NCBI GenBank assembly: GCA_032718475.1
Contig: JAUCBJ010004858.1
Span: forward strand, 6,414 to 70,413
DNA length: 64,000 nucleotides
Reading direction: 5' to 3'
Origin: Nemertoderma westbladi
Taxonomy: Eukaryota; Animalia; Xenacoelomorpha
This document shows positions 1 to 55,158 of this stretch, in pieces. The position numbers and the translations under genes were made by a program. The notes under the pieces are model-generated. The model was given only the letters and a program-made list of their open reading frames with translations. It ran no database searches and was not told the origin of the DNA. How positions within the stretch are numbered: the stretch's first letter is position 1; each line of letters starts with the position of its first letter.

Positions 1-174
1 AGGAGGCGTGTTGTCTGGCATCCAGGTATTGGTTCTTCACGTTCACTGCATACTCTGGGATGTTGGCCGTGCAATTATGGGAGAAGTCGTAGGTGCAAGC
101 GCCTTGGAACGCGTAATGCATTTTGTCGAAGGTGGTGTAATGGGGGTCTCCGCAAGCCTTGCAGTAACTACAAC
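1..174 (-). CDS. Exon 18 (partial): VWD domain 2 start (GDPH)
   Basis: CSYCKACGDPHYTTFDKMHYAFQGACTY...VNVKN; acceptor ...cccatccgaag|. Confidence 0.9.
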
Positions 175-21100: not shown

Positions 21101-24100
21101 TCGCGATAACTAAGGATATAACTTACTAGTACTGGAGATACTGGAGATAATATCGCGATAACTAAGGATAGAAATTACTAGTACTGGAGATACTGGAGAT
21201 AATATCGCGATAACTAAGGATATAACTTACTAGTACTGGTGATCCTGGAGATAATATCGCGATAACTAAGGATATAACTTACTCGTACTGGAGATAATAT
21301 CGCGATAACTAAGGATATAACTTACTAGTACTGGAGATACTGGAGATAATATCGCGATAACTAAGGATATAACTTACTAGTTCTGGAGATAATATCGCGA
21401 TAACTAAGGATATAACTTACTAGTACTGGAGTTGGAGATAATATCGCGATAACTAAGGATATAACTTACTAGTACTGGAGATAATATCGCGATAACTAAG
21501 GATATAACTTACTAGTACTGGAGATAATATCGCGATAACTAAGGATATAACTTACTAGTACTGGAGATACTGGAGATAATATCGCGATAACTAAGGATAT
21601 AACTTACTAGTACTGGAGATACTGGAGATAATATCGCGATAACTAAGGATATAACTTACTAGTACTGGAGATACTGGAGATAATATCGCGATAACTAAGG
21701 ATATAACTTACTAGTACTGGAGATACTGGAGATAATATCGCGATAACTAAGGATATAACTTACTAGTACTGGAGATACTGGAGATAATATCGCGATAACT
21801 AAGGATATAACTTACTAGTACGGAGATACTGGAGATAATATCGCGATAACTAAGGATATAACTTACTAGTACTGGAGATACTGGAGATAATATCGCGATA
21901 ACTAAGGATATAACTTACTAGTACTGGAGATACTGGAGATAATATCGCGATAACTAAGGATATAACTTACTAGTACTGGAGATACTGGAGATAATATCGC
22001 GATAACTAAGGATATAACTTACTAGTACTGGAGATACTGGAGATAATATCGCGATAACTAAGGATATAACTTACTAGTACTGGAGATACTGGAGATAATA
22101 TCGCGATAACTAAGGATATAACTTACTAGTACTGGAGATACTGGAGATAATATCGCGATAACTAAGGATATAACTTACTAGTACTGGAGATACTGGAGAT
22201 AATATCGCGATAACTAAGGATATAACTTACTAGTACTGGAGATACTGGAGATAATATCGCGATAACTAAGGATATAACTTACTAGTACTGGAGATACTGG
22301 AGATAATATCGCGATAACTAAGGATATAACTTACTAGTACTGGAGATACTGAAGATAATATCGCGATAACTAAGGATATAACTTACTAGTACTGGAGATA
22401 CTGGAGATAATATCGCGATAACTAAGGATATAACTTACTAGTTCTGGAGATAATATCGCGATAACTAAGGATATAACTTACTAGTACTGGAGATAATATC
22501 GCGATAACTAAGGATATAACTTACTAGTACTGGAGATACTAGAGATAATATCGCGATAACTAAGTACTGTATATAACTTACTAGTACTTGAGATACTGGA
22601 GATAATATCGCGATAACTAAGGATAGAACGTACTAGTACTGGAGATACTGGAGATAATATCGCGATAACTAAGGATATAACTTACTAGTTCTGGAGATAA
22701 TATCGCGATAACTAAGGATATAACTTACTAGTACTGGAGATACTGGAGATAATATCGCGATAACTAAGGATATAACTTACTCTTCGTCTGTCCCGGTTTT
22801 CCAGCAGTTTCCCCAGTCGTTCGGGTCGCCGTGAGCGACTCCTCCACAGACGTCATCGTTCGAAGGGTTCGCGTCGCAGTTACCGCACATACCATCAACC
22901 TATAAATTTAGATGATATTGTATGGAGAACATTGTGTATAAAGTTTAATAAACTGGAGGTGAGGCATCGTAATTAAAGGGGGTGATTGGGAGTTGTGGCG
23001 ACGCAATTTTGTCGACAATCCGGCATAGCACACTTAATAATATGTATATAGACCTATATCATGCATGCCGACAGTAATAATTGTTAATGTGTTGATTATT
23101 TACTACAGTATATAATATACTTTTTTTGGAAATCTTTTATTCTTATCGAATAAAAGTCTTGGAAATATAAATATCACTTAATAATTGAAAGTTATTTATG
23201 ACACTGCCGAACAGATTAGTTTCAAGGTCAAGGAACAATATGGCTGGCCAGCAGATATTATCTATGTAATATCTCACACTCTATTTACACCGAAATGTTT
23301 CACATAGGAGAAGGTGAAGGTTATTCACCTCCCTGTGACAATACAGATACAGATAATTAAATAAATAAATAATTAATTTGATAAAAGCTTTTATTGAGTT
23401 TATTATCAGCAAGTGATGATTACCTTTCCAGCGAAGGTTGGTGGCAGCGCGACCATTGCGCTGTAACGTGTATCATACACCACCCAGAGTCCGAAATCTG
23501 TCTTAATCAAAACTCTCTGGTTGCAAAGTTCAATTGTGACTTTGTTCTCTAATGGCACATAAGGCATGTTCACAGCAACACCATCAACCTAAAGGTAAAA
23601 CAAAAATATCAGCAAGAAAATCAACAATAAATTCTGCGTTTGAACCTTGACAAGCTTACTTATGCCTACATGTCGCGTAAAATAAACACATTCATTCATT
23701 TTAAAATAAACAACCAGACTGAATTGAACTTACACTCAAATAGAGAAAATTTAAATTAACATAAATCTATCGCAAATTTCTCGTACAAACATATTAAACG
23801 ATTAAGAGATAAAATTATTATCGCGCAAACTTACAAATATATCTCCTCCGAAATAAACTTCTATATGGAAGCCGTAGACCTTAACATCGACCAGTGCAAC
23901 GGAGGTACTCATGTGAAGCTCCTCCCAGTTGTGTTCCCTATTCTTAACATTGACCTCGAACGACGGGATATCGTTGGCGGTATTCTTCGTCCACAGATAC
24001 TGGCAGCTGCCTTGGAAACTAACCCGACGACCATCGAAGCTCTCATAATGTGGATCGCCGCTGCCCCAACAAATACAATAACCTGAAATAACGAGCAAAA

Positions 24101-27100
24101 ATAATATACGTTAATATAGTTTCTTAACCATCAAACAGAAACACTGGTGTTGCCCTAGGAACGGGTGTTCACATACAGACCATGACCCGTAATATAGTGT
24201 CATTTTCTGATGACACAGATCTACAAAGCTTTACCATATTGCTTGAAATTTGGAACACAACTAGTGTAAACTCACAGTCAAATTCCACACGAAGCTCGAA
24301 TTGTTAATTCCGCCTTTACATTTTTTATAGGCGTGCAAAGTCGCACCCTTCGTATCGTGGCCATTCTTCCCATTATTAGTCAAGAATTAGTCGTATGATT
24401 TATAATATCATTATAAAGCTTTAAATACAAGGTTTCCACAAATGTAACAATGTATAGGCGTTCAAAGATTGCAAGAATAATCGTACGCTGGAGGATTTAT
24501 TATATTTAATAAATACACAACATTCTATAGTAATGTGTACAATAAAATAATTGTAACATTCATACCGAGAAGCATATATAATTACAAACCTGGAGGTGGG
24601 TTGTCACAAACACTGGCTCTGTCTCGTCTGGGGCAACAATATTTAACTTCGTAGTTGTAACAAAGCCCATCCGGCTGGGCCAGATTCACACATTCGAACC
24701 CGGGAATCGCAGTCGCGCTCGAGAATATCTCGCCCGTAGCGGTTGCTGGTTGTTTGCCCTGCGGTGTTGGAGGGCAGTTAGTTAGTTATAGGTATGGGAA
24801 CATTGGCAAAGTAAGGCGGGAGGATTAATAAGGCAGACGTTATTATCAACCTTATATCCAGCACACAGCACACAATACAAATTCCACACTCTTATTATAT
24901 TTGGGAAGCAAATTGAAAAGCAATTACTTATGGGAAACCATGGAATGTTATGACGTATATTTTGGTAAAGATTGAATTATCGAATCGATGTGTGGTGCAA
25001 GATTGTTGGCTCACCTGTTTGGTTCTAGCCTACCAGGTTATCGGCTTACCACTTTGGTTCTAGCCTACCAGGTCATTGGTCTACTTCTTTGGTTCTAGCC
25101 TACCAGGTCATTGGTCTACTTCTTTGGTTCTAGCCTACCAAGTCATTGGCCTACCTCTTTGGTTCTAGCCTACCAGGTTATTGGCCTACCTCTTTGGTTC
25201 TAGCCTACCAGGTTATTGGCCTGCCTCTTGGGTTATAGCCTACCAGGTTATTGGCCTACCTCTTTGGTTCTAGCCTACCAAGTCATTGGCCTACCTCTTT
25301 GGTTCTAGCCTACCAGGTTATTGGCCTACCTCTTTGGTTCTAGCCTACCAGGTTATTGGCCTGCCTCTTGGGTTATAGCCTACCAGGTTATTGGCCTACC
25401 TCTTTGGTTCTAGCATACCAGGTCAATGGTCTACCTCTTTGGTTCTAGCCTACCAAGTCATTGGCCTACCTCTTTGGTTCTAGCATACCAGGTCAATGGT
25501 CTACCTCTTTGGTTCTAGCCTACCAAGTCATTGGCCTACCTCTTTGGTTCTAGCCTACCAGGTTATTGGCCTACCTCTTTGGTTCTAGCCTACCAGGTTA
25601 TTGGCCTGCCTCTTGGGTTATAGCCTACCAGGTTATTGGCCTACCTCGTTGGTTCTAGCCTACCAGGTTATTGGCCTAACTCTTTGGTTTTAGCCTACCA
25701 GGTTATTGGCCTACCACTTTGGTTCAACCTACCAGGTTATTGGCCTACATCTTTGGTTCTAGCCTACCAGGTTATTGGCCTACCTCTTTGGTTCTAGCCT
25801 ACCAGGTTATTGGCCTACCTCTTTGGCTCTAGCCTACCAGGTTATTGGCCTACCTCTTTGGTTCTAGCCTACCAGGTTATTGGCCTAACTCTTTGGTTTT
25901 AGCCTACCAGGTTATTGGCCTACCACTTTGGTTCAACCTACCAGGTTATTGGCCTACATCTTTTGTTCTAGCCTACCAGGTTATTGGCCTACCTCTTTGG
26001 TTCTAGCCTACCAGGTTATTGGCCTACCTCTTTGGTTCTAGCCTACCAGATTATTGGCCTACATCTTTGGTTCTAGCCTACCAGGTCATTGGCCTACCTC
26101 TTTGGTTCTAGCCTACCATGTTATCGGCCTACCTCTTTGGTTCTAGCCTACCAGGTAATTGGCCTACCTCTTTGGTTCCAGCCTACCAGGTTATTGGCCT
26201 ACCTCTTTTGTTTTTGCCTACCAGGTTATTGGCCTACCTCTTTGGTTCTAGCCTACCATGTTATCGGCCTACCTCTTTGGTTCTAGCCTACCATGTTATC
26301 GGCCTACCTCTTTGGTTCTAGCCTACCAGGTTATTGGCCTACCTCTTTGGTTCCAGCCTACCAGGTTATTGGCCTACCTCTTTTGTTTTTGCCTACCAGG
26401 TTATTGGCCTACCTCTTTGGTTCTAGCCTACCATGTTATCGGCCTACCTCTTTGGTTCTAGCCTACCAGGTTATTGGCCTACCTCTTTGGTTCCAGCCTA
26501 CCAGGTCATTGGCCTACCTCTTTGGTTCTAGCCTACCATGTTATCGGCCTACCTCTTTGGTTCTAGCCTACCAGGTTATTGGCCTACCTCTTTGGTTCCA
26601 GCCTACCAGGTTATTGGCCTACCTCTTTTGTTTTTGCCTACCAGGTTATTGGCCTACCTCTTTGGTTCTAGCCTACCAGGTTATGGGCCTACCTCTTTGG
26701 TTCCAGCATACCAGATTATTGGCCTACCTCTTTTGTTCTAGCCTACCCAGTTATTGGCCTACCTCTTTTGTTCTAGCCTACCCTGTTATTGGCCTACCTC
26801 TTTGGTTCTAGCCTACCAGATTATTGGCCTACCTCTTTTGTTCTAGCCTACCCTGTTATTGGCCTACCTCTTTGGTTCTAGCCTACCAGATTATTGGCCT
26901 ACCTTTTGGTTCTAGCGTACCAGGTTATTGGCCTACCTCTTTGGTTCTAGCCTACCATGTTATCGGCCTACCTATTTGGTTCTAGCCTACCAGGTTATTG
27001 GCCTACCTCTTCGGTTCTAGCCTACCAGGTTATGGGCCTACCTCTTTGGTTCTAGCCTACCATGTTATTGGCCTACCTCTTTGGTTCTAGCCTACCAGAT

Positions 27101-30100
27101 TATTGGCCTGCCTCTTGGGTTCTAGCCTACCAGGTTATTGGCCTACCTCTTTGGATTTAGCCTACCAGGTTATTGGCCTACCTCTTGGTTCTAACCTACC
27201 AGGTTATTGGCCTACCTCTTTGGTTCTCGCCTACCATGTTATTGGCCTACCTCTTTGGTTCTAGTCTACCATATTATTGGCCTACCTCTTTGGTTCTAGC
27301 CTACAAGGTTTATGGCCCGCCTCTTTGGTTCTAGCCTACCAGGTTATTGGCCTACCTCTTTGGCTCTAGCCTACCAGATTATTGGCCTACCTGTTTGGTT
27401 CTAGCCTACCAGGTTATTGGCCTACCTCTTTGGTTCTAACCTACCAGGTTATTGGCCTACCTCTTTGGTTTTAGCCTACCAGGTTATTGGCCTACCTCTT
27501 TGGTTCTAGCCTACCAGATTATTGGCCTACCTCTTTGGTTCTAGCCTACCCTGTTATTGGCCTACCTTTGGATTCTAGCCTACCAGATTATTGGCCTACC
27601 TCTTTGGTTCTAGCGTACCAGGTTATTGGCCTACCTCTTTGGTTCTAGCCTACCATGTTATCGGCCTACCACTTTGGTTCTAGCCTACCAGGTTATTGGC
27701 CTACCTCTTTGGTTCTAGCCTACCAGGTAATTGGCCTACCTCTTTGGTTCTAGCCTACCATGTTATCGGCCTACCACTTTGGTTCTAGCCTACCAGGTTA
27801 TTGGCCTACCTCTTTGGTTCTAGCCTACCAGGTTATTGGCCTACCTCTTTGGTTCTAGCCTACCATGTTATCGGCCTACCACTTTGGTTCTAGCCTACCA
27901 GGTTATTGGCCTACCTCTTTGGTTCTAGCCTACCAGATTATTGGCCTACCTCTTTGGTTCTAGCCTACTAGGTTATTGGCCTATCTCTTTGGTTCTAGCC
28001 TACCAGGTTATGGGCCTACCTCTTTGGTTCTAGCCTACCATGTTATTGGCCTACCTCTTTGGTTCTAGCCTACAAGATTATTGGCCTACCTCTTTGGTTC
28101 TAGCCTACCAGGTTATAGGTCTACCTCTTTGGTTCTAGCCTACCAAGTCATTGGCCTACCTCTTTGGTTCTAGCCTACCAAGTCATTGGCCTACCTCTTT
28201 GGTTCTAGCCTACCAGATTATTGGCCTACCTCTTTGGTTCTCGCCTACCAGGTTATTGGCCTACCTCTTTGGTTCTAGCCTACCAGGTTATTGGCGTACC
28301 TCTTTGGTTCTAGCATTCCAGATTATTGGTCTACCTCTTTGGTTCTAGCCTACCAGGTTATTGGCCTACCTCTGGTTCTAGCCTACCATGTTATTGGCCT
28401 ACCTCTTTGGTTCTAACCTACCAGATTATTGGCCTACCTCTTTGGTTCTAGCGTACCAGGTTATTGGCCTACCTCTTTCGTTCTAGCCTACCAGGTTATT
28501 GGCCTATCTCTTTGGTTCTAGCCTACCGGGTTATTGGCCTACCTCTTTGGTTCTAGCCTACCAGGTTATAGGCCTACCTCTTTGGTTCTAGCATACCAGA
28601 TTATTGGTCTACCTCTTTGTTTCTAGCCTACTAGCTCTAAGTTATTGGCCTACCTCTTTGATTCTAGCCTACCAGGTTATTGGCCTACCTCTTTGGTTCT
28701 AGCCTACCAGGTTATTGGCCTACCTCTTTGGTTCTAGCCTACCAGGTTATTGGCCTACCTCTTTGGTTCTAGCCTACCAGGTTATTGGCCTACCTCTTTG
28801 GTTCTAGCCTACCAGGTTATTGGCCTACCTCTTTGGTTCTAGCCTACCAGGTTATTGGCCTACCTCTTTGGTTCTAGCCTACCAGGTTATTGGCCTACCT
28901 CTTTGGTTCTAGCGTACAACGCGGTCGGGTCTGTGCAGAGGTTCGGGTGAACGGAAGAAATGGCGGCGAGAGTTTCATCGTCTCCTAGGCCTCCCTCATC
29001 GTCTACATCGTAAAAGTTTGTCCACGACCCTTCGCAATCCGGTTCTGGAGCTGCATTAGAGATTATAGAAGGAAGGTCTATTAGTATGAGAAATATCGAA
29101 TTTTAGGAGTGAAATTAGAAAATTATTTATTTTTGAACGGTGTTTTTAAATATGAAATAATAATTAAAAAGTAATGTGGGGTGTGTAGAATAGGAATTAA
29201 ATATAATCGTTATATTCCGAGAAGAATGAGCTAAATTGCATGCATAAGCAAAGACTAAAGTGATGATGAACAAATGATTTGGTGTATGCAAATCCTCGAT
29301 CAGCTGACAGCAGAACGACTGGTTTCACACCGCATGATATTCAACCTAATGTATGGTTGAATGAAATAATAGAATCTAGAGAGAGTATGTGCTTTGAAGT
29401 GGGGTCAAATCACGGGAAGCAGGACAATTCGGTCCCGGACAATTCGGTCCCGGACAATTCCGTCCCGTACAATTCGGTCCCGGACAATTCGGTCCCGGAC
29501 AATTCGTTCCCGGACAATTCGGTCCCATTAATTTTGTGTTTTGGGACCGAATTGTCCGGATACTGACTAGGACAATTCGGTCCCAAAACATGCATATTAA
29601 TGGGACCGAATTGGGCCCATGTGAAGAATACCAGACTTTCTGCCGTTATATTTCACTTTGCGGTTACCCCCATGTGAAGAATACCAGGTTTTCACCAAAA
29701 ACACAGGTAACAGAAGGGCTTAATCTAACCAAAACAATAAACGAATTAGTATATGTACAGGTTATACGAACGAAATAAGCGCTATAAAACACTTAAAAAA
29801 AACACTAGCTACCATATAATAATATATATTAAGGTTCTAGAACATTCACCATTATATTGTACCAATTAAATTCGGTCCCGGACAATTCGGTCCCGGACAA
29901 TTCGGTCCCGGACAATTGGGTCCCATTTATTTAGTGTTTTTGGACCGAATTGTCCGGGACCGAATAGTCCGGGACCGAATTGTCCGGACCGAATTCTTCG
30001 GTACCGAATTGTCCCGGACCGAATTGTCCTACATCCAAATCACGTAAGGGCCTTATTTCAATAAAGGGCTTCACAATTAATTATTTTTTTAGATTATTTA

Positions 30101-33100
30101 TAATAATTTTATTTATCATTAGGGCATATATCAACCGATAGTAAAATATACAATAGCACAAGAATGTTAAAAACTGTAAAATATGTATTTAATTATGAAA
30201 CAAGGCAACTCTTATGTTAAAATGATGAGAAGATATTGTATTTGGAGAACTGGAGAGACACAAAACTAGATACAATTATTATTTTATTTTAATTATTTCT
30301 AGGTAACTGTAGACTAATATGATTTGATATATATGTATATATCACAATAACAATTGATAATAAATAACCAACCACATATAATGAATAAATAATGAATGAC
30401 TATGTACTTGTATGCTAACTCTTATGTTAAAAAAATTGTATAAATATAAAAATGGTTCGTTAAAAGTTCAGCAACGGGAGTTAGCCTTGCACCTCGCAGT
30501 TTGAGTTGGCTAATATTATGGAGGTGTCGGCAACTGGATGATCACAATTAATTAGTTAACTAATTTTAAAATTAATCAAGCTACTCTAAAAGTATTAGAA
30601 TCAAATACTATTAATTAATTTTTAATTTTAATATTAAACTCACGTTGAGGACAGCAGTATCGAACTCTATAATCGAAACAGCTTACTCCGGCGGGCTGCA
30701 ATGCATTCAAACAAACCAAGCCCGCACTGGGATCGTAAGCGGCAAATACTTGGCCCGTGTTGGCTGCAGGATTGTTGGTTGTCTTCTCGCGGGCGTCAAT
30801 TGCTCTGAAAATAATTAAAACGTAAATAGTATAAGTCTTCATGTAATAAAGATAAATAAATATAAATAGTAACTATTATCATAACAATTTTTTAGGTAAC
30901 AATTAATTTATGCATAAATTAATATCAACCTATCAACCTACAGGAAAAAAGACAATATCATAAGAATGTTAAAAAAAAAACTGTAAAACACGTATTTTTT
31001 AATTATGTTGCTGTTTTTTTTAATTAAATTAGAGTTTCTTCATTAAAATAGTAAAATAGGAAAAAACTCCCATAGACAGGAAATCCTGGAAAGAAAGTAG
31101 CGTGGGTAATAGTAGCTGGGTGCAGCTGCTATAGAGGATCGGGCAAAAAATAAGGATTAGAAATATGAAGGAATAAAAATATGGATTGGAACCCAGCAGA
31201 CTCTGCAGCAGACGCGAAGCGCTGCCTGCTGTCTGTCCTCATCGCTGCCGGAATATCAAACGGACGCCAAGGTCTAACCGACGCATCTCACCTGCCAGCC
31301 CGAGAATAAAAACAACTAAGTTTGAATTTCTCGCGGAAAATTCGAGTAAACTAAAACAACTAAACTAAAGTTAGCTACAAATTTACTGCTTATCGCATTG
31401 CCATTACACACTTACTCTGGATTGTTACACATAAACACGTTGGCAGGGATGGAAACAAGTAGACTAGCTAATGACTCATCCTCGCCAATGTTATCCGGTT
31501 GACCGACATCAAAGTATCCTGTCCAGGATCCACGACTGCACTCAACAATCGGATCTGAAAATAAAAAAAATACAACCTCTTTACATTTTATAGTTTGTCA
31601 CTCATGGCGGTTTCCGTATGTAGTTCTCGTATGGCTTGTATCGCATGTACACTGCCCGGCTGCATGAGCCCGGCTAGGTAATACCCGATTATCTTCTGTT
31701 TGTGAAAGTATTTATGCAGACAAACATTAAAAAAAGTAATTATGTGCCACTTAGTGGAGTGCCGTAGCGAAAAAATCATTACCAATGTGCCAATAGTTAG
31801 TTACCTTGTTGCTATGTCAAAAATCAATTTTGCTATAAGGAAAGAAACATTGAAAGTGATAATAATTTCTGATTTTTTTGAGCATGGGAATTTTGTAATC
31901 TTGGTACTTACAAAAAAATTTGGTACATTTGCCACAATTTCAGCTTTTTTACGTCGATAAGCCATTCCACTATCTTGGTAGCGCCACAAATTTGCAGGCT
32001 AGTTATTAGAAATAATTATATTTATTCCAAAATTGTAACATTACTCAACGCCGTTAGTATTAACAGCGAGTTGTTATTTAGCACTTTACAACTTTAGAGG
32101 ACTTTACAGCATTGTATTGGCCTGTACATTTAGTATTGTATTTGGTGTTATTGTTTACGTGGTAACCCATGACGGCGTTAAGTAATGTCCCCCTAGTGGA
32201 CATTACTTAACGCCGTCATGGTTACCACGTAAACAATAGGTGGTAATTTGCCTGACAGCCAGATAGGCCTACTGCATTACCTACCGGTAGGCGGGGTATA
32301 GGCTATTAATGACCAGTAGGGCCTAGCTATATTATTATTACATGGCTCCAAACGCCACCAGAAATATAAGCTAACTTATTTATAACATAATTTATGTCAT
32401 TTTTACATTTATTTATACGCAACTAATATAATTTGTGCAGTTTCTATCACTTATAATGTATATGTACAATCATTTCGTACTGTTAAAATTTTGGAATAAA
32501 ACTACATACATACTTGTTGCAAAGTACTTTACAGTGTTCTGATCCTCGTGGATTTATTTTCACTCACTCACTAACGTTCGTTCGTGTAACAAAGCCACTC
32601 GGATCATCACACTGTAAAGTGCTACTTTACACACAAGTATGTAAATAGTTATTGCTACACATTGTAGACAATAAACAATATTGATAACTGTTCAATTTTA
32701 TGATTACAGATCACAATAATAAGTTCAAAAAACTACCAATAATTATAGCCATGACAACCAACATATTCCCTAACCGTTCTGGGGGCAACAGAAGCGGACT
32801 TCGTAATCGTTGCAATCCTCTCCGTCGGGTTGGTCGGCGTTCCGGCAGGCTATCCCGTTCCGATCGAAGTGGAAGAGAACGTCGTCCGTGTGGAAGGGGT
32901 GGTAGTGGGCGTTGGTTGTACGAGCTTCCGAGAACACCGGAGTCAGACAATCGTGGTTCTCGAACCCTAGAAATATGTGACTTTCGTTAGCATTATAATT
33001 CCAACATTAATGTAATAAATTATTCAAATAGAAAACTTCAATTTAAATATTAAATATGTTAAAAATACACGATTACAACCTTGCCGTATTTGATATTAGT

Positions 33101-36100
33101 CTATTTTAGAATATAATAATTATTGTTGATTGTTATTAATATTCAAATTAATATATTTTAATATCTACTTATACAGTCTACAGCTGTGTGACTATCTACT
33201 AACTTACGGCTGTGACTATCTACTAACTTACATAGTCTACTGCTATGACTATCTACTAACTTACATAGTTTACGGATGTGACTATCTACTAACTTACATA
33301 GTCTACGCCTGTGACTATCTACTAACTTACATAGTCTACGGCTGTGACTATCTACTAACTTACATAGTCTACGACTGTGACTATCTACTAACTTACATAG
33401 TCTACGGCTGTGACTATCTACTAACTTACATAGTCTACGACTGTGACTATCTACTAACTTACGGCTGTGACTATCTACCAACTTACATAGTCTACGGCTG
33501 TGACTATCTACTAACTTACATAGTCTATGGCTGTGACTATCTACTAACTTACATAGTCTACGGCTGTGACTATCTACCAACTTGCGGCTGTGACTATCTA
33601 CCAACTTACATAATCTACGGCTGTGACTATCTACTAACTTATGTAGTCTACGGCTGTGACTATCTACTAACTTACATAGTCTACGCCTGTGACTATCTAC
33701 TAACTTACATAGTCTACGACTGTGACTATCTACTAACTTACATAGTCTACGGCTGTGACTATCTACTAACTTACATAGTCTACGGCTGCGACTATCTACT
33801 AACTTACATAGTCTACAGCTGTGACTATCTACTAACTTACATAGTCTACGGCTGTGACTATCTACTAACTTACATAGTCTACGGCTGTGACTATCTACTA
33901 ACTTACGGCTGTGACTATCTACTAACTTACATAGTCTACGACTGTGACTATCTACTAACTTACGGCTGTGACTATCTACTAACTTATGTAGTCTACGGCT
34001 GTGACTATCTACTAACTTACATAGTCTACGACTGTGACTATCTACTAACTTACGGTTGTGACTATCTACCAACTTACATAGTCTACGGCTGTGACTATCT
34101 ACTAACTTACATAGTCTACGGCTGTGACTATCTACTAACTTATATAGTCTACGGCTGTGACTATCTACTAACTTACATAGTCTACGGCTGTTACTATCTA
34201 CTAACTTACGGCTGTGACTATCTACCAACTTACATAATCTACGGCTGTGACTATCTACTAACTTATATAGTCTACGGCTGTGACTATCTACTAACTTACA
34301 TAGTCTACGGCTGTGACTATCTACCAACTTACGGCTGTGACTATCTACCAACTTACATAATCTACGGCTGTGACTATCTACTAACTTATATAGTCTACGG
34401 CTGTGACTATCTACTAACTTACATAGTCTACCGCTGTGACTATCAACTAACTTACATAGTCTACGGCTGTGACTATCTACCAACTTACATAATCTACGGC
34501 TGTGACTATCTACTAACTTACATAGTCTACGGCTGTTACTATCTACTAACTTACGGCTGTGACTATCTACCAACTTACATAGTCTACGGCTGTGACTATC
34601 TACCAACTTACATAGTCTACGGCTGTGATTATCTACCAACTTACATAGTCTACGGCTGTGACTATCTACCAACTTACATAGTCTACGGCTGTGACTATCT
34701 ACCAACTTACATAGTCTACGGCTGTGACTATCTACCAACTTACATAGTCTACGGCTGTGACTATCTACCAACTTACATAGTCTACGGCTGTGACTATCTA
34801 CCAACTTACATAGTCTACGGCTGTGACTATCTACTAACTTACATAGTCTACGGCTGTGACTATCTACTAACTTACATAGTCTACGGCTGTGACTATCTAC
34901 CAACTTACATAGTCTACGGCTGTGACTATCTACCAACTTACATAGTCTACGGCTGTGACTATCTACTAACTTACATAGTCTACGGCTGTGACTATCTACC
35001 AACTTACATAGTCTACGGCTGTGACTATCTACCAACTTACATAGTCTACGGCTGTGACTATCCTCCAATATACTGGCGAGGAGTTCCCAGTCTCCTGTTC
35101 CAGTCGCGTCGTCCCGATCGATCCATGAACTGAAAGCTCCAGCGCAATCTCTCGATGCTGAGAAAATGTGTAAAAATAATAATAATTTATTTATTAAGAG
35201 TGCAATACAGAGCAATGTCGAGTGCGCGTTACAAGCGGAGATTTTAATTAACAGTTAAGGTAGGGCGGGTTGACCTCAGTTTGACCTCAGTGAATTATTA
35301 ATCGTTTATCACATTTTAAATTTCCAGAAGGGAATGTCAATAACTTTACTTGTACCGGTGCGACGGTGATCCCGTCACACGAACGTTTTAACATCCAAAA
35401 TATACCCTCTATAGAGTCAGACTATTATACCCTGCTCCATAAAATGTCAAAAAGTCACGAGATAACAAATAAGAATCGCATCTAAAATAAAACTCACGTG
35501 GAGTTGGTTGGGTTGGGTCGCCGTCGGAACAGAATACATTGACAGCCGAATTACCACCGCACCATTGATTCGCGTTGCCAAAGCAATGAATGTCGCACAT
35601 CTCCTCAGCCTCCATTTCGGGTGGCATATGGTAGGAGCAGCCGCACTAAAATAAAAAGAGTAAATAAAAATTACGAATTTTGCTATGCTCCAGTAGTTAG
35701 CAATAAATTGGCGAATGATGTTGGCCTTAGACGTAGTCGTACTAAATTAAATAGTCTAGACACTGCCTCATCATCACTTGGAAACTTACCGGCACCACGT
35801 CTGACTTACTGGGGTAAAGTATCTTACTAAGTTGAAAGAGCAATCAGCAGCAGCTCTCATCAATAATAAGTTCAAGTAAAGTAAATAGTTACTAGAAGCA
35901 GTTACTCTTACGATGCTCAATTAAGCGTAAAATCGCTATGGTTACGGCAAAAATGTCGAATTTATCGCAACCTCGACAATGTAGGAAGTATCTTACCTTA
36001 TTTCCTTGTCCCAGAATGGTAAAGGGAAGCATAAACATAGCGCACATCGTCTGGCAATAATTCACAGTCATTACGGCGGATATGTCTGTAGCGACAAACA

Positions 36101-39100
36101 TAGCTATCGCATCGGAATAGCGTGGGGAAAAACATCCCTTGAAGCAGTAATCAACTGAAAAATTCAATACAAAGGAATACCGCGTATTAATTAATGAGAC
36201 TTTATGAGATTAACGCGACTTAATGAGATTGTATTAATTCAGTGACTTGGACCTTATTGAGATTGTATAAATTCAGTGACTTGGACCTTAATGAGATTGT
36301 ATTAATTCAGTGACTTGACCTTAATGAGATTGTATTAATTCAGTGACTTGGACCTTAATGAGATTGTATTAATTCAGTGATTAGGACCTTAATGAGATTG
36401 TATTAATTCAGTGACTTGGACCTTAATGAGATTGTATTAATTCAGTGATTAGGACCTTAATGAGATTGTATTAATTCAGTGACTTGGACCTTAATGAGAT
36501 TGTATTAATTCAGTGACTTGGACCTTAATGAGATTGTATTAATTCAGTGACTTGGACCTTAATGAGATTGTATTAATTCAGTGACTTGGACCTTAATGAG
36601 ATTGTATTAATTCAGTGATTAAGACCTTAATGAGATTGTATTAATTCAGTGACTTGGACCTTAATGAGATTGTATTAATTCAGTGATTAGGACCTTAATG
36701 AGATTGTATTAATTCAGTGACTTGGACCTTAATGAGATTGTATTAATTCAGTGATTAGGACCTTAATGAGATTGTATTAATTCAGTGACTTGGACCTTAA
36801 TGAGATTGTATTAATTCAGTGACTTGGACCTTAATGAGATTGTATTAATTCAGTGATTAGGACCTTAATGAGATTGTATTAATTCAGTGACTTGGACCTT
36901 AATGAGATTGTATTAATTCAGTGATTAAGACCTTAATGAAATTGTATTAATTCAGTAACTTGGACCTTAATGAGATTGTATTAATTCAGTGACTTGGACC
37001 TTAATGAGATTGTATTAATTCAGTGACTTGGACCTTAATGAGAGTGTATTAATTCAGTGACTTGGACCTTAATGAGATTGTATTATTTCAGTGACTTGGA
37101 CCTTATTGAGATTGTATTAATTCAGTGACTTGGACCTTAATGAGATTGTATTAATTCAGTGACTTGGACCTTAATGAGATTGTATTAATTCAGTGACTTG
37201 GACCTTAATGAGATTGTATTAATTCAGTGACTTGGACCTTAATGAGATTGTATTAATTCAGTGACTTGGACCTTAATGAGATTGTATTAATTCAGTGACT
37301 TGGACCTTAATGAGATTGTATTAATTCAGTGACTTGGACCTTAATGAGATTGTATTAATTCAGTGACTTGGACCTTAATGAGATTGTATTAATTCAGTGA
37401 CTTGGACCTTAATGAGATTGTATTAATTCAGTGACTTGGACCTTAATGAGATTGTATTAATTCAGTGACTTGGACCTTAATGAGATTGTATTAATTCAGT
37501 GACTTGGACCTTAATGAGATTGTATTAATTCAGTGACTTGGACCTTAATGAGATTGTATTAATTCAGTGACTTGGACCTTAATGAGATTGTATTAATTCA
37601 GTGACTTGGACCTTAATGAGATTGTATTAATTCAGTGACTTGGACCTTATTGAGATTGTATTAATTCAGTGACTTGGACCTTAATGAGATTGTATTAATT
37701 CAGTGACTTGGACCTTATTGAGATTGTATTAATTCAGTGACTTGGACCTTAATGAGATTGTATTAATTCAGTGACTTGGACCTTAATGAGATTGTATTAA
37801 TTCAGTGACTTGGACCTTAATGAGATTGTATTAATTCAGTGACTTGGACCTTAATGAGATTGTATTAATTCAGTGACTTGGACCTTATTGAGATTGTATT
37901 AATTCAGTGACTTGGACCTTAATGAGATTGTATTAATTCAGTGACTTGGACCTTAATGAGATTGTATTAATTCAGTGACTTGGACCTTAATGAGATTGTA
38001 TTAATTCAGTGACTTGGACCTTAATGAGATTGTATTAATTCAGTGACTTGGACCTTATTGAGATTGTATTAATTCAGTGACTTGGACCTTATTGAGATTG
38101 TATTAATTCAGTGACTTGGACCTTAATGAGATTGTATTAATTCAGTGACTTGGACCTTAATGAGATTGTATTAATTCAGTGACTTGGACCTTAATGAGAT
38201 TGTATTAATTCAGTGACTTGGACCTTAATGAGATTGTATTAATTCAGTGACTTGGACCTTAATGAGATTGTATTAATTCAGTGACTTGGACCTTAATGAG
38301 ATTGTATTAATTCAGTGACTTGGACCTTAATGAGATTGTATTAATTCAGTGACTTGGACCTTAATGAGATTGTATTAATTCAGTGACTTGGACCTTAATG
38401 AGATTGTATTAATTCAGTGACTTGGACCTTAATGAGATTGTATTAATTCAGTGACTTGGACCTTAATGAGATTGTATTAATTCAGTGACTTGGACCTTCA
38501 TGAGATTGTATTAAATTTGAAACAGAGATAGTTGCACCTCCCTCCTCCTTGCTGGGTGAGCCAGAATTTTTATTTTTGCTTTCATTCTTTAGCTACAAGC
38601 GTTTAAAAAAGTGTCTCCGTCGATATTGCAAGAATTCAGAATAATGTAACGCAATCTGAATTACGTTGAAAAATAGCTGAGATAATATGGGCGTCCGAAA
38701 GTTGTATGGGTTTACATCTGCGTGAAGCTATTTAATTCAGTATAAAAAAACGCACAACATTCTGTAACATTTTGCATATCTATAAATAGCTGCGCAATAG
38801 TAATATTGTACACCATCTCCCTCAATACAACAACCATTTTTAGCAAGTCGGAGTCCCGGAGTCTCTATTAAACTTGTATGAAGATAGTTCGACACCTATT
38901 CTTACCGCTGCTCTGGCAGGGCCGGATTTTTCCACTTTCAAATCATTTAGCTACAACAAGCCGTTAAAAATGCATATTTAGCAATATTTGACCTCCTCTT
39001 AATTTTAATCTTTTGAATGAAATCTAGATAGAACCGCTTTCATCTGCAGATTCCGAATCTAAAAACCGTTTTCATTTTCACCAATAACTTCCGGATATAT

Positions 39101-42100
39101 TATCATTTTTCTAAGAAATCCTTCATGACACACCGATTAAGTAGGAGGGATTTAAAACTAACTCTTTTTCAAATTTCATTAGGATTATGTATAAAAATTT
39201 GGTGGGGATCCAAGTTACTGAAGGAATTTACTATATTCTAGGACATGGTGTAAACAGTGTCAACATGATGTGCTTCGAACATTAAATCCAGAGGGATCTA
39301 AAGTTGAACTTTATTAAACTTTGGCGACGACGTTAACTTTGGTTATATTAACTTTGGTTTTATCTACCAACTTTGGTTATATCTACTAACTTTGGTTTTA
39401 TCTACCAACTTTGGTTATATCTACTAACTTCATTTAGGTATATCTTCTTACTTTAGTTATATCTACTTCATGTAGGGCGGGGTAGCTCAGTTGGTTGAGC
39501 GCCGGGCCTGCAATCTATTGGTTGTAGGTTCAGCCCCGCCAGGGTCCACTCTGCCTTTCATCCACTGGGGTCGATAAAATGAGTACCAGTTAAATAACTG
39601 GGAGCAAATCTTGGGATAGGAGTAGCGCCCACCCCTACCCTCGGGTAGCAGCTATCGAAAGAGGAGCCTTCGGGTCGCCTCCGGCTTCGGCCGACTGTTT
39701 GCTTTGCTTGCTACTTCATTTAGGTATATCTTCTTCCTTTAGTTATACCTACTAACTTTGGTTTTATCTACCAACTTTGGTTATATCTCCTAAGTTTGGT
39801 TTTATCTACCAACTTTGGTTATATCTACATCCTTTCGTTATATCTACTAACTTTGGTTACATCTACCCCCTTTTGTTATATCTACTTCATTTAGTTATAT
39901 CTTCTTCCTTTAGTTATATCTACTAACTTTGGTTATATCTACTAATTTTTGTTATATCTACAAACTTTGGTTATATCTACGAACTTTGGTTATATCTACT
40001 AACTTTGGTTTTATCTACCAACTTTGGTTATATCTACATCCTTTCGTTATATCTACTAACTTTGGTTACATCTACCCCCTTTTGTTATATCTACTTAATT
40101 TAGTTATATCTTCTTCCTTTAGTTATATCTACGAACTTTAGTTATATCTACTAACTTTGGTTATATCTACGAACTTTGGCTATATCTACTAACTTTGTTA
40201 TATCTACTCCGTTTAGATATATCTACTAACTTTGGTTATATCTACTAACTTTGGTTATATCTACTAACTTTGTTATATCTACTCCGTTAAGATATATCTA
40301 CTAACTTTGTTATATCTACTAACTTTGTTATATCTACTAACTTTGTTATATCTACTAACTTTGTTATATCTACTAACTTTGTTATATCTACTCCGTTTAG
40401 ATATATATACTAACTTTGTTATATCTACTCCGTTTAGATATATCTACTAACTTTGTTATATCTACTTCATTTAGGCATATCTTCTTACTTTAGTTATATC
40501 TACTAACTTTTGTTATATCTACAAACTTTGGTTATATCTACTAACTTTGGTTATATCTACTAACTTTGTTATATCTACTCCGTTTAGATATATATACTAA
40601 CTTTGTTATATCTACTCCGTTTAGATATATCTACTAACTTTGTTATATCTACTTCATTTAGGCATATCTTCTTACTTTAGTTAAATCTACTTCATTTAGG
40701 CATATCTTCTTACTTTAGTTATATCTACTTCATTTAGGTATATCTTCTTACTTTAGTTATATCTACTTCATTTAGGTATATCTTCTTACTTTAGTTATAT
40801 CTACGAACTTTGGTTATATCTTCTTCCTTTAGTTATATCTACTAACTTTGTTATATCTACTCCGTTTAGCTATATCTACTAACTCTGGTTACATCTACTC
40901 CCTTTAGTTATATCTATTCCATTTAGGTATATCTTCTTCCTTTAGTTATATCTACTCCGTTAGGCATATCTTCTTCCTTTAGTTATATCTACTCCATTAG
41001 GTTATATCAACGCAGTTTGTTTATATTATATACGAATATATTTAGGTTATAGTTACTCATTTTGTTATATAGACTTACTTTTGTTATTCCCTATGGTTAT
41101 ATATCTACTCACTTTGGTTATATCTTGGATTTGATGGATCTATCCCGCTCGTGTCCAGGTTATTCTCAGCATCTTCATCTGACGTAACTCCTTCAAAGGT
41201 TTCCAATCCATCTGAAAGTTACAAGAGAGTTTTTATACAGAATTACATTCAATGTATTTGGCTCTAATCTCGGACATTCCGCATTATTACATTCAATGTA
41301 TTTGGCTCTAATCTCGGACATTCCGCATTATTACATTCAATGTATTTGGCTCTAATCTCGCACATTCTGCATTATTACATTCAATGTATTTGGCTCTAAT
41401 CTCGGACATTCCGCATTATTACATTCAATGTATTCGGCTCTAATCTCGGACATTCCGCATTATTACATTCAATGTATTTGGCTCTAATCTTTGACATTCC
41501 CCATTATTACATTCAATGTATTTAGCTCTAATCTCGGACATTCTGCATTATTAATTCAATGTATTTGGCTCTAATCTTTGACATTCCCCATTATTACATT
41601 CAATGTATTTAGCTCTAATCTCGGACATTCTGCATTATTAATTCAATGTATTTGGCTCTAATCTCGAACATTCCGCATTATTACATTCAATGTATTTGGC
41701 TCTAATCTCGGACATTCTGCATTATTAATTCAATGTATTTGGCTCTAATCTCGGACATTCCGCATTATTAATTCAATGTATTTGGCTCTAATCTCGGACA
41801 TTCCGCATTATTACATTCAATGTATTTGGCTCTAATCTCGGACATTCCGCATTATTACATTCAATGTATTTGGCTCTAATCTCGGACATTCCGCATTATT
41901 ACATTCAATGTATTTGGCTCTAATCGCGGACATTCCGCATTATTAGATTCAATTTATTTGGCTCTAATCTCGGACATTCCGCATTATTAGATTCAATTTA
42001 TTTGGCTCTAATCTCGGACATTCCGCATCATTACATTCAATGTATTTGGCTCTAATCTCGGACATTCCGCATTATTACATTCAATGTATTTGGCTCTAAT

Positions 42101-45100
42101 CTCGGACATTCCGCGTTATTAGATTCAATGTATTTGGCTCTAATCTCGGACATTCCGCATTATTACATTCAATGTATTTGGCTCTAATCTTTGACATTCC
42201 CCATTATTACATTCAATGTATTTAGCTCTAATCTCGGACATTCTGCATTATTAATTCAATGTATTTGGCTCTAATCTCGAACATTCCGCATTATTACATT
42301 CAATGTATTTGGCTCTAATCTCGGACATTCTGCATTATTAATTCAATGTATTTGGCTCTAATCTCGGACATTCCGCATTATTAATTCAATGTATTTGGCT
42401 CTAATCTCGGACATTCCGCATTATTACATTCAATGTATTTGGCTCTAATCTCGGACATTCCGCATTATTACATTCAATGTATTTGGCTCTAATCTCGGAC
42501 ATTCCGCATTATTACATTCAATGTATTTGGCTCTAATCGCGGACATTCCGCATTATTAGATTCAATTTATTTGGCTCTAATCTCGGACATTCCGCATTAT
42601 TAGATTCAATTTATTTGGCTCTAATCTCGGACATTCCGCATCATTACATTCAATGTATTTGGCTCTAATCTCGGACATTCCGCATTATTACATTCAATGT
42701 ATTTGGCTCTAATCTCGGACATTCCGCGTTATTAGATTCAATGTATTTGGCTCTAATCTCGGACATTCCGCATTATTACATTCAATGTATTTGGCTCTAA
42801 TCTCGGACATTCCGCATTATTACATTCAATGTATTTGGCTCTAATCTCGGACATTCCGCATTATTACATTCAATGTATTTGGCTCTAATCTCGGACATTC
42901 CGCATTATTAGATTCAATTTATTTGGCTCTAATCTCGGACATTCCGTATTATGAATACGCATTATTTCAATTCAGAGGGATTGTTCATTTTGCCATTTTG
43001 AATGCATTTACTACAACAACTGTATAGTAAACAATTTTAGACTTAGCATACAATTTCTGTTACCACGCTAGGGAGATGTAGAATACTCGAGAGGCGTTCT
43101 AGTAGTTTATTGTTTTAAGTTATTAATTAGGCTACTTTGCAGCGATCCGTTTTATAGGCCGCAACGATTCTTTAAACTTTTTTGTGTTTCGCGGATATCA
43201 CTAAAGCGCTAACAAAATTATATAAAGTTAAACTACGGTGGCTCCTTTAGGTTAATTAAGTTTCCATTTATTATTGGAGGAGATACTAAGTCAGGCCCGG
43301 AGATACTATCTCAGGGCCTGAGATACGATCTAAGGCCCTGAGATACTAAGTCCGGCCTGGAGATACTATCTCAGGCCCTGAGATACAAAGTCCGGCCCGG
43401 AGATACTATCTCATGCCCAGAGATACTATCTCAGGCCCTGAGATAGTATCTCCAGGCCGGGCTTAGTATATCCGGCCCGGAGATAAAATACAGAACAAGT
43501 TCATAGACATTATAGCGCTGACACAGCAATCAACAGAAACAAATTGCAGCCAATCAGCTAACCAAATAGATCGTGTCACACGGAGATATGGAGGGGACCA
43601 CTACCCCCAATGATATATCCCACTCAGGGAAAGTCGACGAACCCGAGGGGCGAAGCACAGCCAACGTTGAAGGAGCCTGCATCCCTACCGTCGAGAGCGC
43701 TGGAAGTTCAAGCGATGGGAAGGCAACACTCATCGACGCGCTGAAAACTAGAATTGAGCTACCACCCGTGGAGCCTTTCAAGTTTGATGGTAGCAAGCCG
43801 GAAGAATATCTACAGTTGCGGAGGATGTATACTAATGAGGTTTTGACAAAAAATCTCACACAGACGGAGTGCCTTAAATACCTACAAGTCTATACAGGGG
43901 GGCCAGCTTACGACATCGTGAGGCAATACCAAGGTATTGAAGCAGGATTCACGACCGCATGGAGAGCCCTGGACAGGGAATTTGGCCATCTTGCGAAGAT
44001 TATCCGACAAACCTTAAGGGGAATAACATCAGGCGGACTCGCAGATTACCCCGTTAGCATCAAGACTTTCGCTAACAAAGTAGAGAAAGCGCTAATAGTG
44101 TTAAAGACCCTAGATGCACCTTACGAACACAATGCATCGAACAACATCACCATGATAGCGCAGGCACTACCGATTTGGCTAAGAAACAAATGGAGAAAGA
44201 TCGCTTTCTCCACTCGAGAAAAGAAAGGTGCAGAGCAAGGGCTGGAGGAGATGTCGAACTTCCTTAACTACGAGGCGGAGCTAATAACGGATCCAGTCTA
44301 TAGTGAGGACAGTCTAGGCAAGGTACCGAAACTACCAATCTAACTCTAGAGAATTCATGGAAGCCATAGATGATAAACAACCGGAGGTAAAGATAGATAA
44401 ACATATGACGGTAAAGGAGCAGATCATGGCGGACAAGAGAATAGAATCGCAGCAGAAGGTACTAGGGATCGTATGGAACCGGGAGACAGATGAGTTGGAG
44501 TATTTACTAAGTCAGGAGGGCGCTGGGATCCATACTAAACGGGGCTACGTGTCATACATAGCAAGGATTTACGATCCGCTATGTCTAGCGTCCCCATTGT
44601 TGGTCACGGGGAAACAAATATTGAAGAAGGTCTACAAGATTAAAGACGACTGGGACGCAGAGGTCCCAGTGGAGATGAGCAAACAGTGGGAGAAATGGAC
44701 AGGGAGCCTCGCAGAAATGGGGACTTATAGTATGCCACGTGTATACTTCCCGGATGGGGACATGGGCGATTTAGAACTACATATGTTCTCCGATGCATCC
44801 CTGAAGCATATGGTGCGGCACTTTATTTGGTACAGCGGAAGGGGACTCACAAGCCCAGGCTTGCGTTTAGTAAAGCGAGGTCGACGCCACCAGATTCAGC
44901 ATCAGTGCCGAAACTCGAGCTAACGGCTGCAAGACTAGGAGTGAGAGCGACAGCATACTTGGTGGACACGATACCAAGTATAGTAGAGACACACTACTGG
45001 ACAGATTCCATTGGAATGGTTGCATAACGAGAAGACGCGTAATCCCATATTTGTGGCGAATAGAGTGGATGAGATAAGAGCAACATCAGATTTGGAGAAG

Positions 45101-48100
45101 TGGCACTACTGCCCAACTGACGAAAATCCAGCGGATCTGCTATCGAGGGGCGTTGTACGCCACGCTTTCTCGAGGAAGCAGGAGTTGTGGCAGCATAGAC
45201 CGCACTTCCTTAATGACAGGTCGAACTGGCCACCGATGAGGAAGTTAGATCCAAGTACAGAGTAAGTGACAGTGGAGGAGGAGGGAGAGGAATCAGAAGG
45301 GGAGGAAATATTTAGTCAGCTAGTGAGGGAGGTTAAGGAGGCGCCACCACGATCAAAGGCGATAGAGTTATGCGATAACCCAACGGATAGGCTGCTCAGT
45401 TACAGCTCCAGCTGGTACAAGATGAACAAGCTAGTAGCATATCTGAGGGCCTACAGATAATTCCTTAGGGGAGCTGGTAAGGATACCAAGATGAGACCCG
45501 CCATCGATCTGGAAGGAGCAGCCAAAGCCATGATACGATACGAACAAAGGAAGGGATACGGAGATGAGGTAGACCGCATCAGCAAGCAACAATGCCTTCG
45601 TCAAGACAGCGAGCTCAACGCCCTGTCACCATAATTAGATAACGCATGAACTCCAGGGTGGTGAACAACATCAGCCCCGTAATCCCACCAAATCCGATAA
45701 TAATCCCCAACAAGTCACCAATAGTCCACCAGATCATATGGGACGCCCATAAGTCCATACTACATGGGGGTACCAACCAGACCCTAACGGAGATTTGAAA
45801 GATATTCTGGGTAATCCAGCTCAGGAAGATGGTGAAGGCGGTAGTGGGGCAATGCCAGACGTGCCAAACGGACGAAGAAGGAGAGGGCCGTACAGGAGAT
45901 GGCGCCATTGCCGACCAACAGGGTGAGGCATCACGACCCACCGTTCACACACTGTGGCGTGGACATGTTCGGGCCGATTAAAATAAAGGTGATGCGGTAT
46001 ATGGAGATGACAGGATGACAGATGACATGATTATCAACAATCACTGGAGGTTGGCTAGGGTAGTGGAGATGGACCCCGGCAAAGATGGAAGTGATGATCG
46101 GAGGGAAGATAGGGGCCAGAGATAGGAAGACCTACAGGAGGGCGGTAGGGAAGTGTTGCCTATTGGAGGGGTCACCCTAAACTAGTTGAGTCGTCCAATA
46201 TATTGGACTGAGGGGGTGGGATTGAGGGTGAGACGCCCTTCCCACACACTAAAAAAAATTTAAATAAAAATAAGTAGTAAAAATACTAGTACCAAGGTAT
46301 GCTGTAGGTAGACATTATGTACGTCTGATGGGTACGGACGTACTAACGTACATAATATATAGGTGTAGGTAGTTACAATTATGTACATCGGACGGGTACA
46401 AATGTACCAACATACCTAATTTACATACGCACTATTGTGGGCACTGAGGGCGCCACGTGAGGAGTTGAGGGGGGGTTTGTACGCATACCGTAGTAGAAGG
46501 GTACATAGTACCGTAAATACGTAATACGCACTATTGTGGGCACTGAGGTCGCCACGTGAGGAGTTGATAGGGGGTATGTACGCATACTGTAGTAGAAGGG
46601 TACACAGTACCATAGTGAGGATTAGCAGGGGTATATATTGCGCACGTCTGATGGGCACAATGTGCCAACGTACGTAATAAATACCAGCACAAGCTGGGTT
46701 AATGGGACCAATAACACGTAATACGTACTATTATGGGCATTGAGGGCGCCACTTGAGGAGTCGAGGGGGGTATGTAGGCATAGTAGAATAGACCGTATAG
46801 GCCGCACAAACTAGACTACTGTAGCGCATAGCCCATAATACAGACTTAGGGTATTGTTACAGACCCAGGAGACTGTCTGGTAGGAAGCTAGTACGACAAT
46901 AGGAAAACTGTAGCTAGTCTTCTCTGTATACAAGTAGGAATGGATTGCTTACATAGTAATCAAGTAGCAGATAGAATAATAGCACATACGGGGGAGAATA
47001 TAAAAAAGAACAAAATTAATAAAATTATAGCAACTGGGAAGAAAAATAAGTTAAACCGGTTGCTGAGCATGGTGCAGGAGCTAGTGAGACTGAAAACTAC
47101 GGTCAAGGTGGGATCGGCGATACATGGCGATGTAGACAGAATTATTGGACCGGGCACCCCAAATATTCTGGACATGCAGGTAGCCTACATGGCTATGACG
47201 AAACCAGACGGATTGGGATTGGTGGACAACACGGGACATTACGGAGCCGTGGCAATGGACCAACTGATGGGACTCATGTGCCACAAGCCGATGGACTGGA
47301 ACAAGTTCCGGGAGGAATACGGAGGGGAACTTGCAAACTCACTCAAGTGGGGAGCGAGACCGGGGAAGGATGAGCTATATCACTTCTGGAAGGGAGCGAT
47401 AAAGATATGTCAGAAGAGATATATCCTACAGGAGGACTGGATAATGATAGGTTTACTAAACCTATTCATCACGGTGATTTTCGGCAGGGAGCCGACGGCG
47501 TTTCTACTATCGGCATCACCTCTGAGCCACAGGAGAGCCTTTAAGGTGGCCCTAGAAGGTTTTGTAGACCACCTGGGGGTGAAGGGCGAGTCGGTATATT
47601 GCAATACCCAACACCTGGTGGACAGAGAGGTAGACACACCGTACAAGCGATGGGAGAAACAGGGGGCGGATAGGGTTGAGGAGAGGATACTAGAGGAAGT
47701 CGCCAGGAGAGAGAGAAGGAAAACAGCGGGCAGAAAGGCATATATAAGGGGAGGGGAGTACGAGTTCGAAGCCCAAGACTTGGACGAGTTGAGGTGGGGA
47801 TTGGAGACCTTGGGCGAGTTTGGCTGGGGGACGAACTGGGTTGGATGGAAGAGACACCGATACAGTCTACATCGGGGCTGCAAGGAATGCTGATGCCTGC
47901 GGGGTCTGAGGGCGACTTCGGAAGGAAGAGACCGAGGGAGGTAGAAGGGTGGAAGGCCATGAGTGAATACCAGGCCGGAAAGGGACACAGTGGATTAACC
48001 GGGATCCCGGGTTTGGATCCGCTCCCGGCAGGGGATGAGGAGGAGGACGAGTTCGGGACGATGCCATCGATAGAGAGGATCGGCCACTCAGACACGGACT

Positions 48101-55100: not shown

Positions 55101-55158
55101 TACATGTTACTAATACTTCACCAGACTCACTTGACATTGTATTAGTTGTACATTCCAT
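52101..55158 (-). CDS. Possible small exons of an unknown gene: 55090-55158 (MECTTNTMSSESGEVLVTCTPAE) and 52101-52166 (IREQVTVARYFNQNNKLKTIEQ)
   Basis: ATG...GAG|GTAAGT, then pyrimidine-rich ctctgcag| 66 nt |GTACAG; both phase 0. No recognisable homology; could be non-coding upstream exons. Confidence 0.35.
52164..54421. repeat. Minisatellite, 37 bp unit, ~61 copies, each an acceptor-like sequence
   Basis: Minus strand reads agtggtcctctatcttctacctgtgctctacAG|atac. Confidence 0.97.

Follow-up and report, generated by a model that had tools for sequence, protein, structure and literature searches.

The window, the 64,000-nt stretch of DNA analysed here, carries on its minus strand a gene whose exons were placed by eye and by reading frame. 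Eighteen exons were modelled, all with AG/GT edges, and joined together they give 947 codons without a stop. The encoded domain order is a hydrophobic N-terminus, WSC, three WxxW domains, VWD, C8, a Cys-rich TIL-like exon, TILa/EGF, and the start of a second VWD. Pfam searches with single exons placed Mucin2_WxxW on exons 5+6, 7+8, and 9+10 and also recovered VWD, C8, TILa, and EGF; WSC on exons 3–4 was below the cut-off. For the WxxW halves (Pfam PF13330), matches were obtained to the CysD domains of MUC5AC (8ov0) and MUC2 (6tm6), and the closest proteins found were 35–39% identical, including mucin-5AC-like proteins of Saccoglossus (acorn worm) and Branchiostoma (lancelets). No longer protein was found with exon 6 alone as the query, and an exon 6 search returned four loci at 39–43% identity, none orthologous and none with an array like that of intron 5 near the match. 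The features of intron 5 and its flanking exons are listed below; all coordinates are positions in the window, and the array and the host gene are read on the minus strand.

1..49464, minus strand: host gene model, 18 exons in the window, running off the window (AG/GT edges, open frame, Pfam)
35041..35157, minus strand: modelled exon 5 of 117 nt, entered and left in phase 1, encoding the N-terminal half of WxxW domain 1 (AG/GT edges, open frame; weak PF13330 match, profile 2–28, E 0.1)
35035..35040, minus strand: first GTAAGT donor, TAT/GTAAGT, presumed authentic (donor strength, open frame)
33166..35062, minus strand: 33/24-nt minisatellite of intron 5 (TRF, unit alignment in donor register)
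32967..33165, minus strand: remainder of intron 5, AT-rich and non-repeat, holding the acceptor (sequence)
32775..32966, minus strand: modelled exon 6, encoding the C-terminal half of WxxW domain 1 (PF13330 profile 32–88, E 1.4e-09)

We infer that exon 5 ends at 35041. The exon 5/exon 6 numbering and the placement in WxxW domain 1 given in a preliminary description of this DNA agree with the gene model (35157–35041 and 32966–32775, with a phase-1 intron). The intron site differs among the three WxxW domains (28899–35157), lying in phase 1 before the linker Cys, in phase 2 after it, and in phase 0 further on, and these differences in place and phase suggest independent intron gain or movement.

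The array takes up about 1.84 kb of the 2.07-kb intron 5, which would measure about 230 nt without it. TRF reported a period of 33, 58.5 copies, 88% matches, and a score of 2855, and alignment in the donor register gave 59 unit starts from 35040 to 33207 on the minus strand. A 2-nt insertion breaks the last unit, which ends near 33166; the other 58 are complete (49 of 33 nt and nine of 24 nt). The 24-nt unit, which corresponds to a 9-nt deletion between two GTA triplets, is the sole internal length variant of this array. On the gene model, with its predicted boundary, a unit is composed of 22 nt from the end of exon 5 and 11 nt from the start of intron 5; its exon bases and the intron start are alike at 7/11 positions. 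GTAAGT stands at 53 of the 59 unit starts, which is the first donor and 52 copies, and the GT has been lost at the remaining six (five to AT, one to GC). Donors 2 onward match donor 1 at −3 to +6, with 44 copies of TAT/GTAAGT, and all unit starts share phase 1 with the donor at 35041/35040. Past that donor the exon 5 frame stays open for 627 codons, reading (CKLVDSHSRRL)n up to a stop at 33158–33160, and any of the 52 downstream GTAAGT copies would give an in-frame, stop-free joining to exon 6. Just one three-unit block recurs within the array, and clear block duplication is not claimed. Substitutions bunch on the CCG/CGT bases of the unit (columns 22–24 hold 6 of the 19 distinct changes), as expected from CpG decay. 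The preliminary description had counted about 58 in-frame donors in units of 33 or 24 nt, nearly all keeping GTAAGT in phase 1, with the exon frame stop-free throughout as (CKLVDSHSRRL)n. The array is real, with unit lengths, phase, and frame as described, but its donors number about 53, since six unit starts have lost the GT.

Several other features were observed in the window. Intron 1 (~43500–49000, plus strand) holds a broken retroelement-like insert, one frame of which matches DUF1759 (E 6e-09), a domain known from BEL/Pao LTR retrotransposon Gag. Intron 16 contains, antisense to the gene, an open frame of 715 codons (7177–9324, plus strand) that carries short 21-nt repeats, lacks a Pfam match, and is probably a mobile element. 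An intronless VPS4 gene (58527–59792, minus strand; MIT, AAA, and Vps4_C) adjoins the intron-rich gene and is 54–71% identical to the 120 matches listed, across fishes, insects, molluscs, and a lancelet (Branchiostoma, 68%). At 62931–64000 on the plus strand, a Trp-rich open frame of at least 356 codons runs off the window and has no Pfam match.

Donor-reiterating arrays in the host gene

Near-copies of each junction were sought in its own intron, for the 17 donors and 17 acceptors of the modelled gene. Donor-reiterating arrays were found at 5/17 donors, in introns 2, 5, 9, 13, and 14 with periods of 19, 33, 35, 52, and 28 nt, respectively, and acceptor-reiterating arrays at 0/17 modelled acceptors. 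Besides that of intron 5, the junction near-copy search yielded the following arrays:

39335..41126, minus strand: 19-nt array on the end of exon 2 and its donor, out of frame
25006..28917, minus strand: 35-nt array that repeats the exon 9 donor in ~108 near-copies, with an in-frame stop at codon 3
18183..22781, minus strand: 52/43-nt array from the exon 13 donor, 81 CTA/GTAAGT copies, in-frame stop at codon 1
10668..16581, minus strand: 28-nt array that repeats the exon 14 donor in ~200 near-copies, out of frame

Least clear of these is the intron 2 array, whose copies are weakened (GTTAGT) and diverged near the donor. A non-repeat insert of ~200 nt, which looks SINE-like by eye and has a tRNA-like end, interrupts it at 39500–39700; ARAGORN called no tRNA in the window. 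In the 52-nt array of intron 13, 12 spacings are 43 nt, a 9-nt variant like that of intron 5 despite the out-of-frame period, which speaks for a neutral origin of the intron 5 array.

Donors were ranked with a simple U1-match score devised for this analysis. The GT sites scoring at least as high as the first donor number 160 in intron 9 and 86 in intron 13, none of them in frame before the first stop, and in intron 14 only 1 of 121 such sites is in frame before the first stop. Nearly all downstream donors of introns 2, 9, 13, and 14 would lead to a frameshift or an early stop. Since the 18-exon frame is intact despite these out-of-frame donor copies, a first-donor rule is suggested: among many equal donors, the animal most likely picks the first.

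The window contains 11 large minisatellites, which make up 28,587 of its 64,000 bases (~45%), and the intron 5 array is the only one of the 11 whose period is a multiple of three. Five of the nine large arrays inside the gene span a donor. The P value for this clustering, which was noticed post hoc in one gene and calculated under our own simple null, lies between 2e-6 and 5e-3 depending on the assumed pre-expansion intron length. This points to arrays sitting on donors more often than the simple null allows, a bias in where repeats start or survive. Acceptor-spanning or exonic duplications would be purged more often, but such purging would not account for the excess over intron interiors. Of the four other arrays in the gene, three span no donor and stop short of an acceptor by 30, 64, and 111 nt (41242–42952, 36219–38514, and 1957–3574), so the bias may perhaps be toward exon edges generally. 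Further upstream, a 44-nt array (55249–57157, minus strand) starts at a donor-like ATAG/GTAGGT. An acceptor-like CAG immediately precedes the ATG of the first coding exon, and 55091–55185 resembles a non-coding exon (AG ... GAG/GTAAGT); a 5' untranslated exon may thus bear a sixth donor array, the 44-nt one.

The open frame and the choice of donor

That a stop-free frame can arise by chance from a homogeneous unit had been allowed for in the preliminary description, and our simulations bear this caveat out. Units built from the real exon part, GTAAGT, and five random intron bases were stop-free in 74% of cases, and the frame was still open after 19 neutral substitutions 63% of the time. Among hypothetical donor-spanning duplications of 15–60 nt in the gene, 16% were both a multiple of three in length and stop-free; at this rate the probability of at least one such array in five is 0.58, so that one in-frame array is expected by chance. 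The distinct substitutions within the array comprise 6/19 synonymous changes against 5.8 expected (p 0.54), no stops against 0.45 expected, and 2/19 changes in donor columns against 3.5 expected, both of them in the GT. The donor columns are not protected, and the substitutions look neutral and give no sign of purifying selection on codons or donors in the array, at the low power of 19 distinct changes. Weighted by copy, 32/52 changes are synonymous, or 12/32 without the commonest variant; the three commonest GT-keeping variants (20, 5, and 4 copies) are synonymous.

One plus-strand frame across the array is also open, as had been pointed out, and runs for 667 codons. It was rejected as a gene, as it has no Met before the second-last residue and no Pfam match. 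The 37- and 44-nt arrays upstream likewise give open frames, of 511–791 codons. The read-through frame gave Pfam matches that fell short of the curated cut-offs throughout; no single stretch passed by itself, and the matches were treated as repeat artefacts. The array unit was also sought outside the window with a 22-nt exact pattern, which was found in 0 metagenome stretches.

We consider it probable that the array is a neutral donor-reiterating minisatellite across the exon 5/intron 5 junction, with splicing mainly at the first GTAAGT and the 52 copies leaving with the intron. A short junction-spanning duplication would have seeded the array, perhaps helped by the 7/11 likeness of exon and intron, and slippage or unequal exchange would have amplified the units and spread variants, including the 24-nt unit. 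A first-come, exon-definition-type donor choice would make such arrays harmless at donors, and the period of 33 and the open frame would both be chance. Several points speak against the first-donor reading. Both unit lengths are multiples of three and the copy-weighted changes lean synonymous; leaky use in intron 5, unlike in the other four arrays, would meet no premature stop; and the published CBS and 6-16 arrays use two extra donors and that of ABCA7 one. The first-donor scanning rule, moreover, was demonstrated in mammalian cells, and the host here is a non-mammal.

Other mechanisms were considered. RNA structure as a donor switch was rejected: the fold of the region has a z of −3.4 against plain shuffles, but the unit is ordinary against periodicity-keeping shuffles (RNA z −0.86, DNA z −1.01), and donors 1–7 are equally accessible in a fold model. 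Hairpin-prone seeds were not supported as a common cause, with a shuffle fraction below 0.05 in 2/11 units as DNA and 0/11 as RNA. Intron gain by tandem duplication of an AG/GT proto-splice site would derive both intron ends from the duplicated unit, with the acceptor in the last copy; instead, the acceptor is in unrelated AT-rich DNA, 199 nt past the end of the array, and acceptor-junction copies are absent.

The exon 5 edge and rival readings of donor use

The end of exon 5 itself resembles the array:

35041..35073, minus strand: 'unit 0', the last 33 nt of exon 5, 29/33 identical to unit 1 in register, starting with a donor-like GTATAT, phase 1 (alignment)

Because unit 0 matches unit 1 at 29/33 positions, one unit may already have been exonised. 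On this tentative and not very likely reading, compatible with a neutral array spliced mainly at its first donor, the array would have started exactly at a former donor at 35074, that donor would have decayed to GTATAT, splicing would have moved one copy on, and 33 nt would have been added to the exon; a unit with a stop or out of frame would not have allowed such a step. The first 11 bases of unit 0 match unit 1 at 7 positions, and 0.7% of the gene's coding 11-mers match so well. A donor at 35041 gives domain 1 an E-to-C linker of 20 residues, against 10–14 in 185 of 215 homologous domain matches in 150 homologous proteins; the others comprise 14 linkers of at most nine residues, nine of 15–21 residues, and seven matches of at least 25 residues, most of them running across two domains, which were discounted as artefacts of the pattern. 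Without unit 0 the linker would shrink to nine residues and the domain would score 69.9 rather than 63.5 bits. The available text on F7 gives a precedent, in that the next copy becomes active once the first donor is lost (PMC1557585). Other observations pull the opposite way. The four differences between unit 0 and unit 1 are all confined to the first 11 bases (p 0.008 under even divergence), a pattern equally compatible with a short-likeness seed and with an edge effect. The residues LASIL are similar to LASLL and LAAIS in the helix of domains 2 and 3, so the codons there look like old exon. A nine-residue linker is itself rare (only 14/215 are that short or shorter), a donor at 35059 scores equally well (70.0 bits), and no orthologue was found. 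A weak upstream site may also be the donor in use today.

A short leak down the array seems rather unlikely. The first donor would be dominant, donors 2 and 3 would be measurably used, and WxxW domain 1 would gain 11 or 22 residues as splicing noise. The identity of donors 2 onward with donor 1 at −3 to +6 and their equal accessibility in the fold model favour such leakage, as do the two extra donors of CBS and 6-16 and the one of ABCA7. With a unit of 12 nt and three in-frame isoforms, 6-16 would be a short ladder of the sort put forward in the preliminary description. The linker that would receive the insert is the one whose length varies most in the WxxW domain (7 to 21 residues in homologues), and the unit-bearing mRNAs would meet no premature stop. 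However, F7, LMNB2, and PDGF use the first donor only, and each 33-nt unit would bring an extra Cys into a six-Cys domain, with the best-domain score falling from 62.8 to 43.5 bits with one unit. A combination of the two readings, in which the 35074 donor decayed, the loop of 9 residues grew to 20, and continuing use of the next donors suffices for a short in-frame ladder of loop lengths, so that the repeat would feed the domain unit by unit, is improbable.

We regard it as very improbable that the whole array is exonic, with the last donor (33207) in use and ~600 residues of (CKLVDSHSRRL)n inside WxxW domain 1. The frame is open throughout and both unit lengths are multiples of three, but the substitution pattern is neutral, a compact domain would be split with ~45 extra Cys (52 vs 6), and a last-donor rule would break the gene at introns 2, 9, 13, and 14.

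The splice-tunable protein length put forward in the preliminary description, a selected ladder in which many of the 53 donors would be chosen to set the length of a Cys/Arg/His-rich insert, is not supported and appears most improbable: all 53 donors are in phase and stop-free, and the arithmetic of nth-donor isoforms holds, with 52 copies joining exon 6 in frame, but there is no sign of use, the frame, codons, and unprotected donors carry no mark of selection, the four sister arrays are out of frame, each unit adds a Cys, exon 5 would exceed 280 nt after five units, and use beyond the first three donors is absent from the published cases compared, as far as their available text goes.

Comparison with known donor-reiterating repeats

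Donor-reiterating minisatellites are already known from human and lancelet genes, and the intron 5 array as likeliest read adds little to them. Five arrays, one in frame and four not, offer a natural test of donor choice outside mammals, and exonisation of one unit, if true, would provide a rare, visible example in which an exon edge shifted by a whole repeat unit. In the literature searched, which leaves out most subscription journals, no paper on a long in-frame donor ladder was found.

At the level of the protein, exons 5+6, 7+8, and 9+10 encode three domains of the WxxW/CysD type, but the domain 1 linker, at 20 residues under the 35041 donor, is longer than in nearly all homologues examined. 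At the level of the repeat, the array shares with the F7/CBS/mirage class its head-to-tail units in the 10–160 bp range, a first unit that spans the predicted exon/intron boundary, and a donor consensus that recurs in later units.

In the human F7 intron 7 37-bp VNTR, up to nine identical donors are present and the most upstream alone is used, even where later ones keep the frame, according to the available text of Borensztajn et al. (2006, PMC1557585). As that text describes F7, the first unit spans the exon/intron boundary and identical donors trail the authentic one in both arrays. F7 has 5–9 units of 37 bp with 4 exon bases, whereas the intron 5 array has 59 units of 33/24 nt with 22 exon bases, in frame and stop-free; on the same text, first-donor use was demonstrated in F7 and is predicted for the intron 5 array. 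The CBS intron 13 31-bp VNTR, 6-16 (IFI6) intron 2, LMNB2 (100 bp), and PDGF (81 bp) are likewise described in the available text as donor-reiterating arrays, of 10–25 units, with two extra proximal donors used in CBS and 6-16 and the first only in LMNB2 and PDGF (PMC1557585). Relative to these, as there described, the intron 5 array has about 2–6 times the copy number, lies in an invertebrate-like gene, and is accompanied by four more arrays. The human ABCA7 intron 18 25-bp VNTR begins at the donor GT, has a minor isoform that keeps one unit, and reaches up to ~427 units, in the available text of De Roeck et al. (2018, PMC5954066). In contrast to the intron 5 array, that of ABCA7 is, on the same text, out of frame, and its one-unit isoform has a premature stop; length polymorphism was shown in ABCA7, whereas the intron 5 array is known from one sequence.

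The amphioxus 'mirage' minisatellites of Adh3, the globins BflGb6/BflGb9, troponin C, and PGBD5 are described, in the available text of Ebner et al. (2010, PMC3087553) and of PMC3902484, as 10–160 bp tandem repeats across exon-intron boundaries at several loci that reportedly leave normal splicing undisturbed, and were proposed there as a route to new exon-intron structure. On those descriptions, the likeness is one of invertebrate boundary-spanning repeats at several loci, and the difference is that mirages occur at 5' and 3' boundaries, whereas the present gene has arrays at 5/17 donors and 0/17 acceptors. On the features compared, the intron 5 array is a donor-reiterating minisatellite of the F7/CBS/ABCA7/mirage type, with its donor use predicted from sequence.
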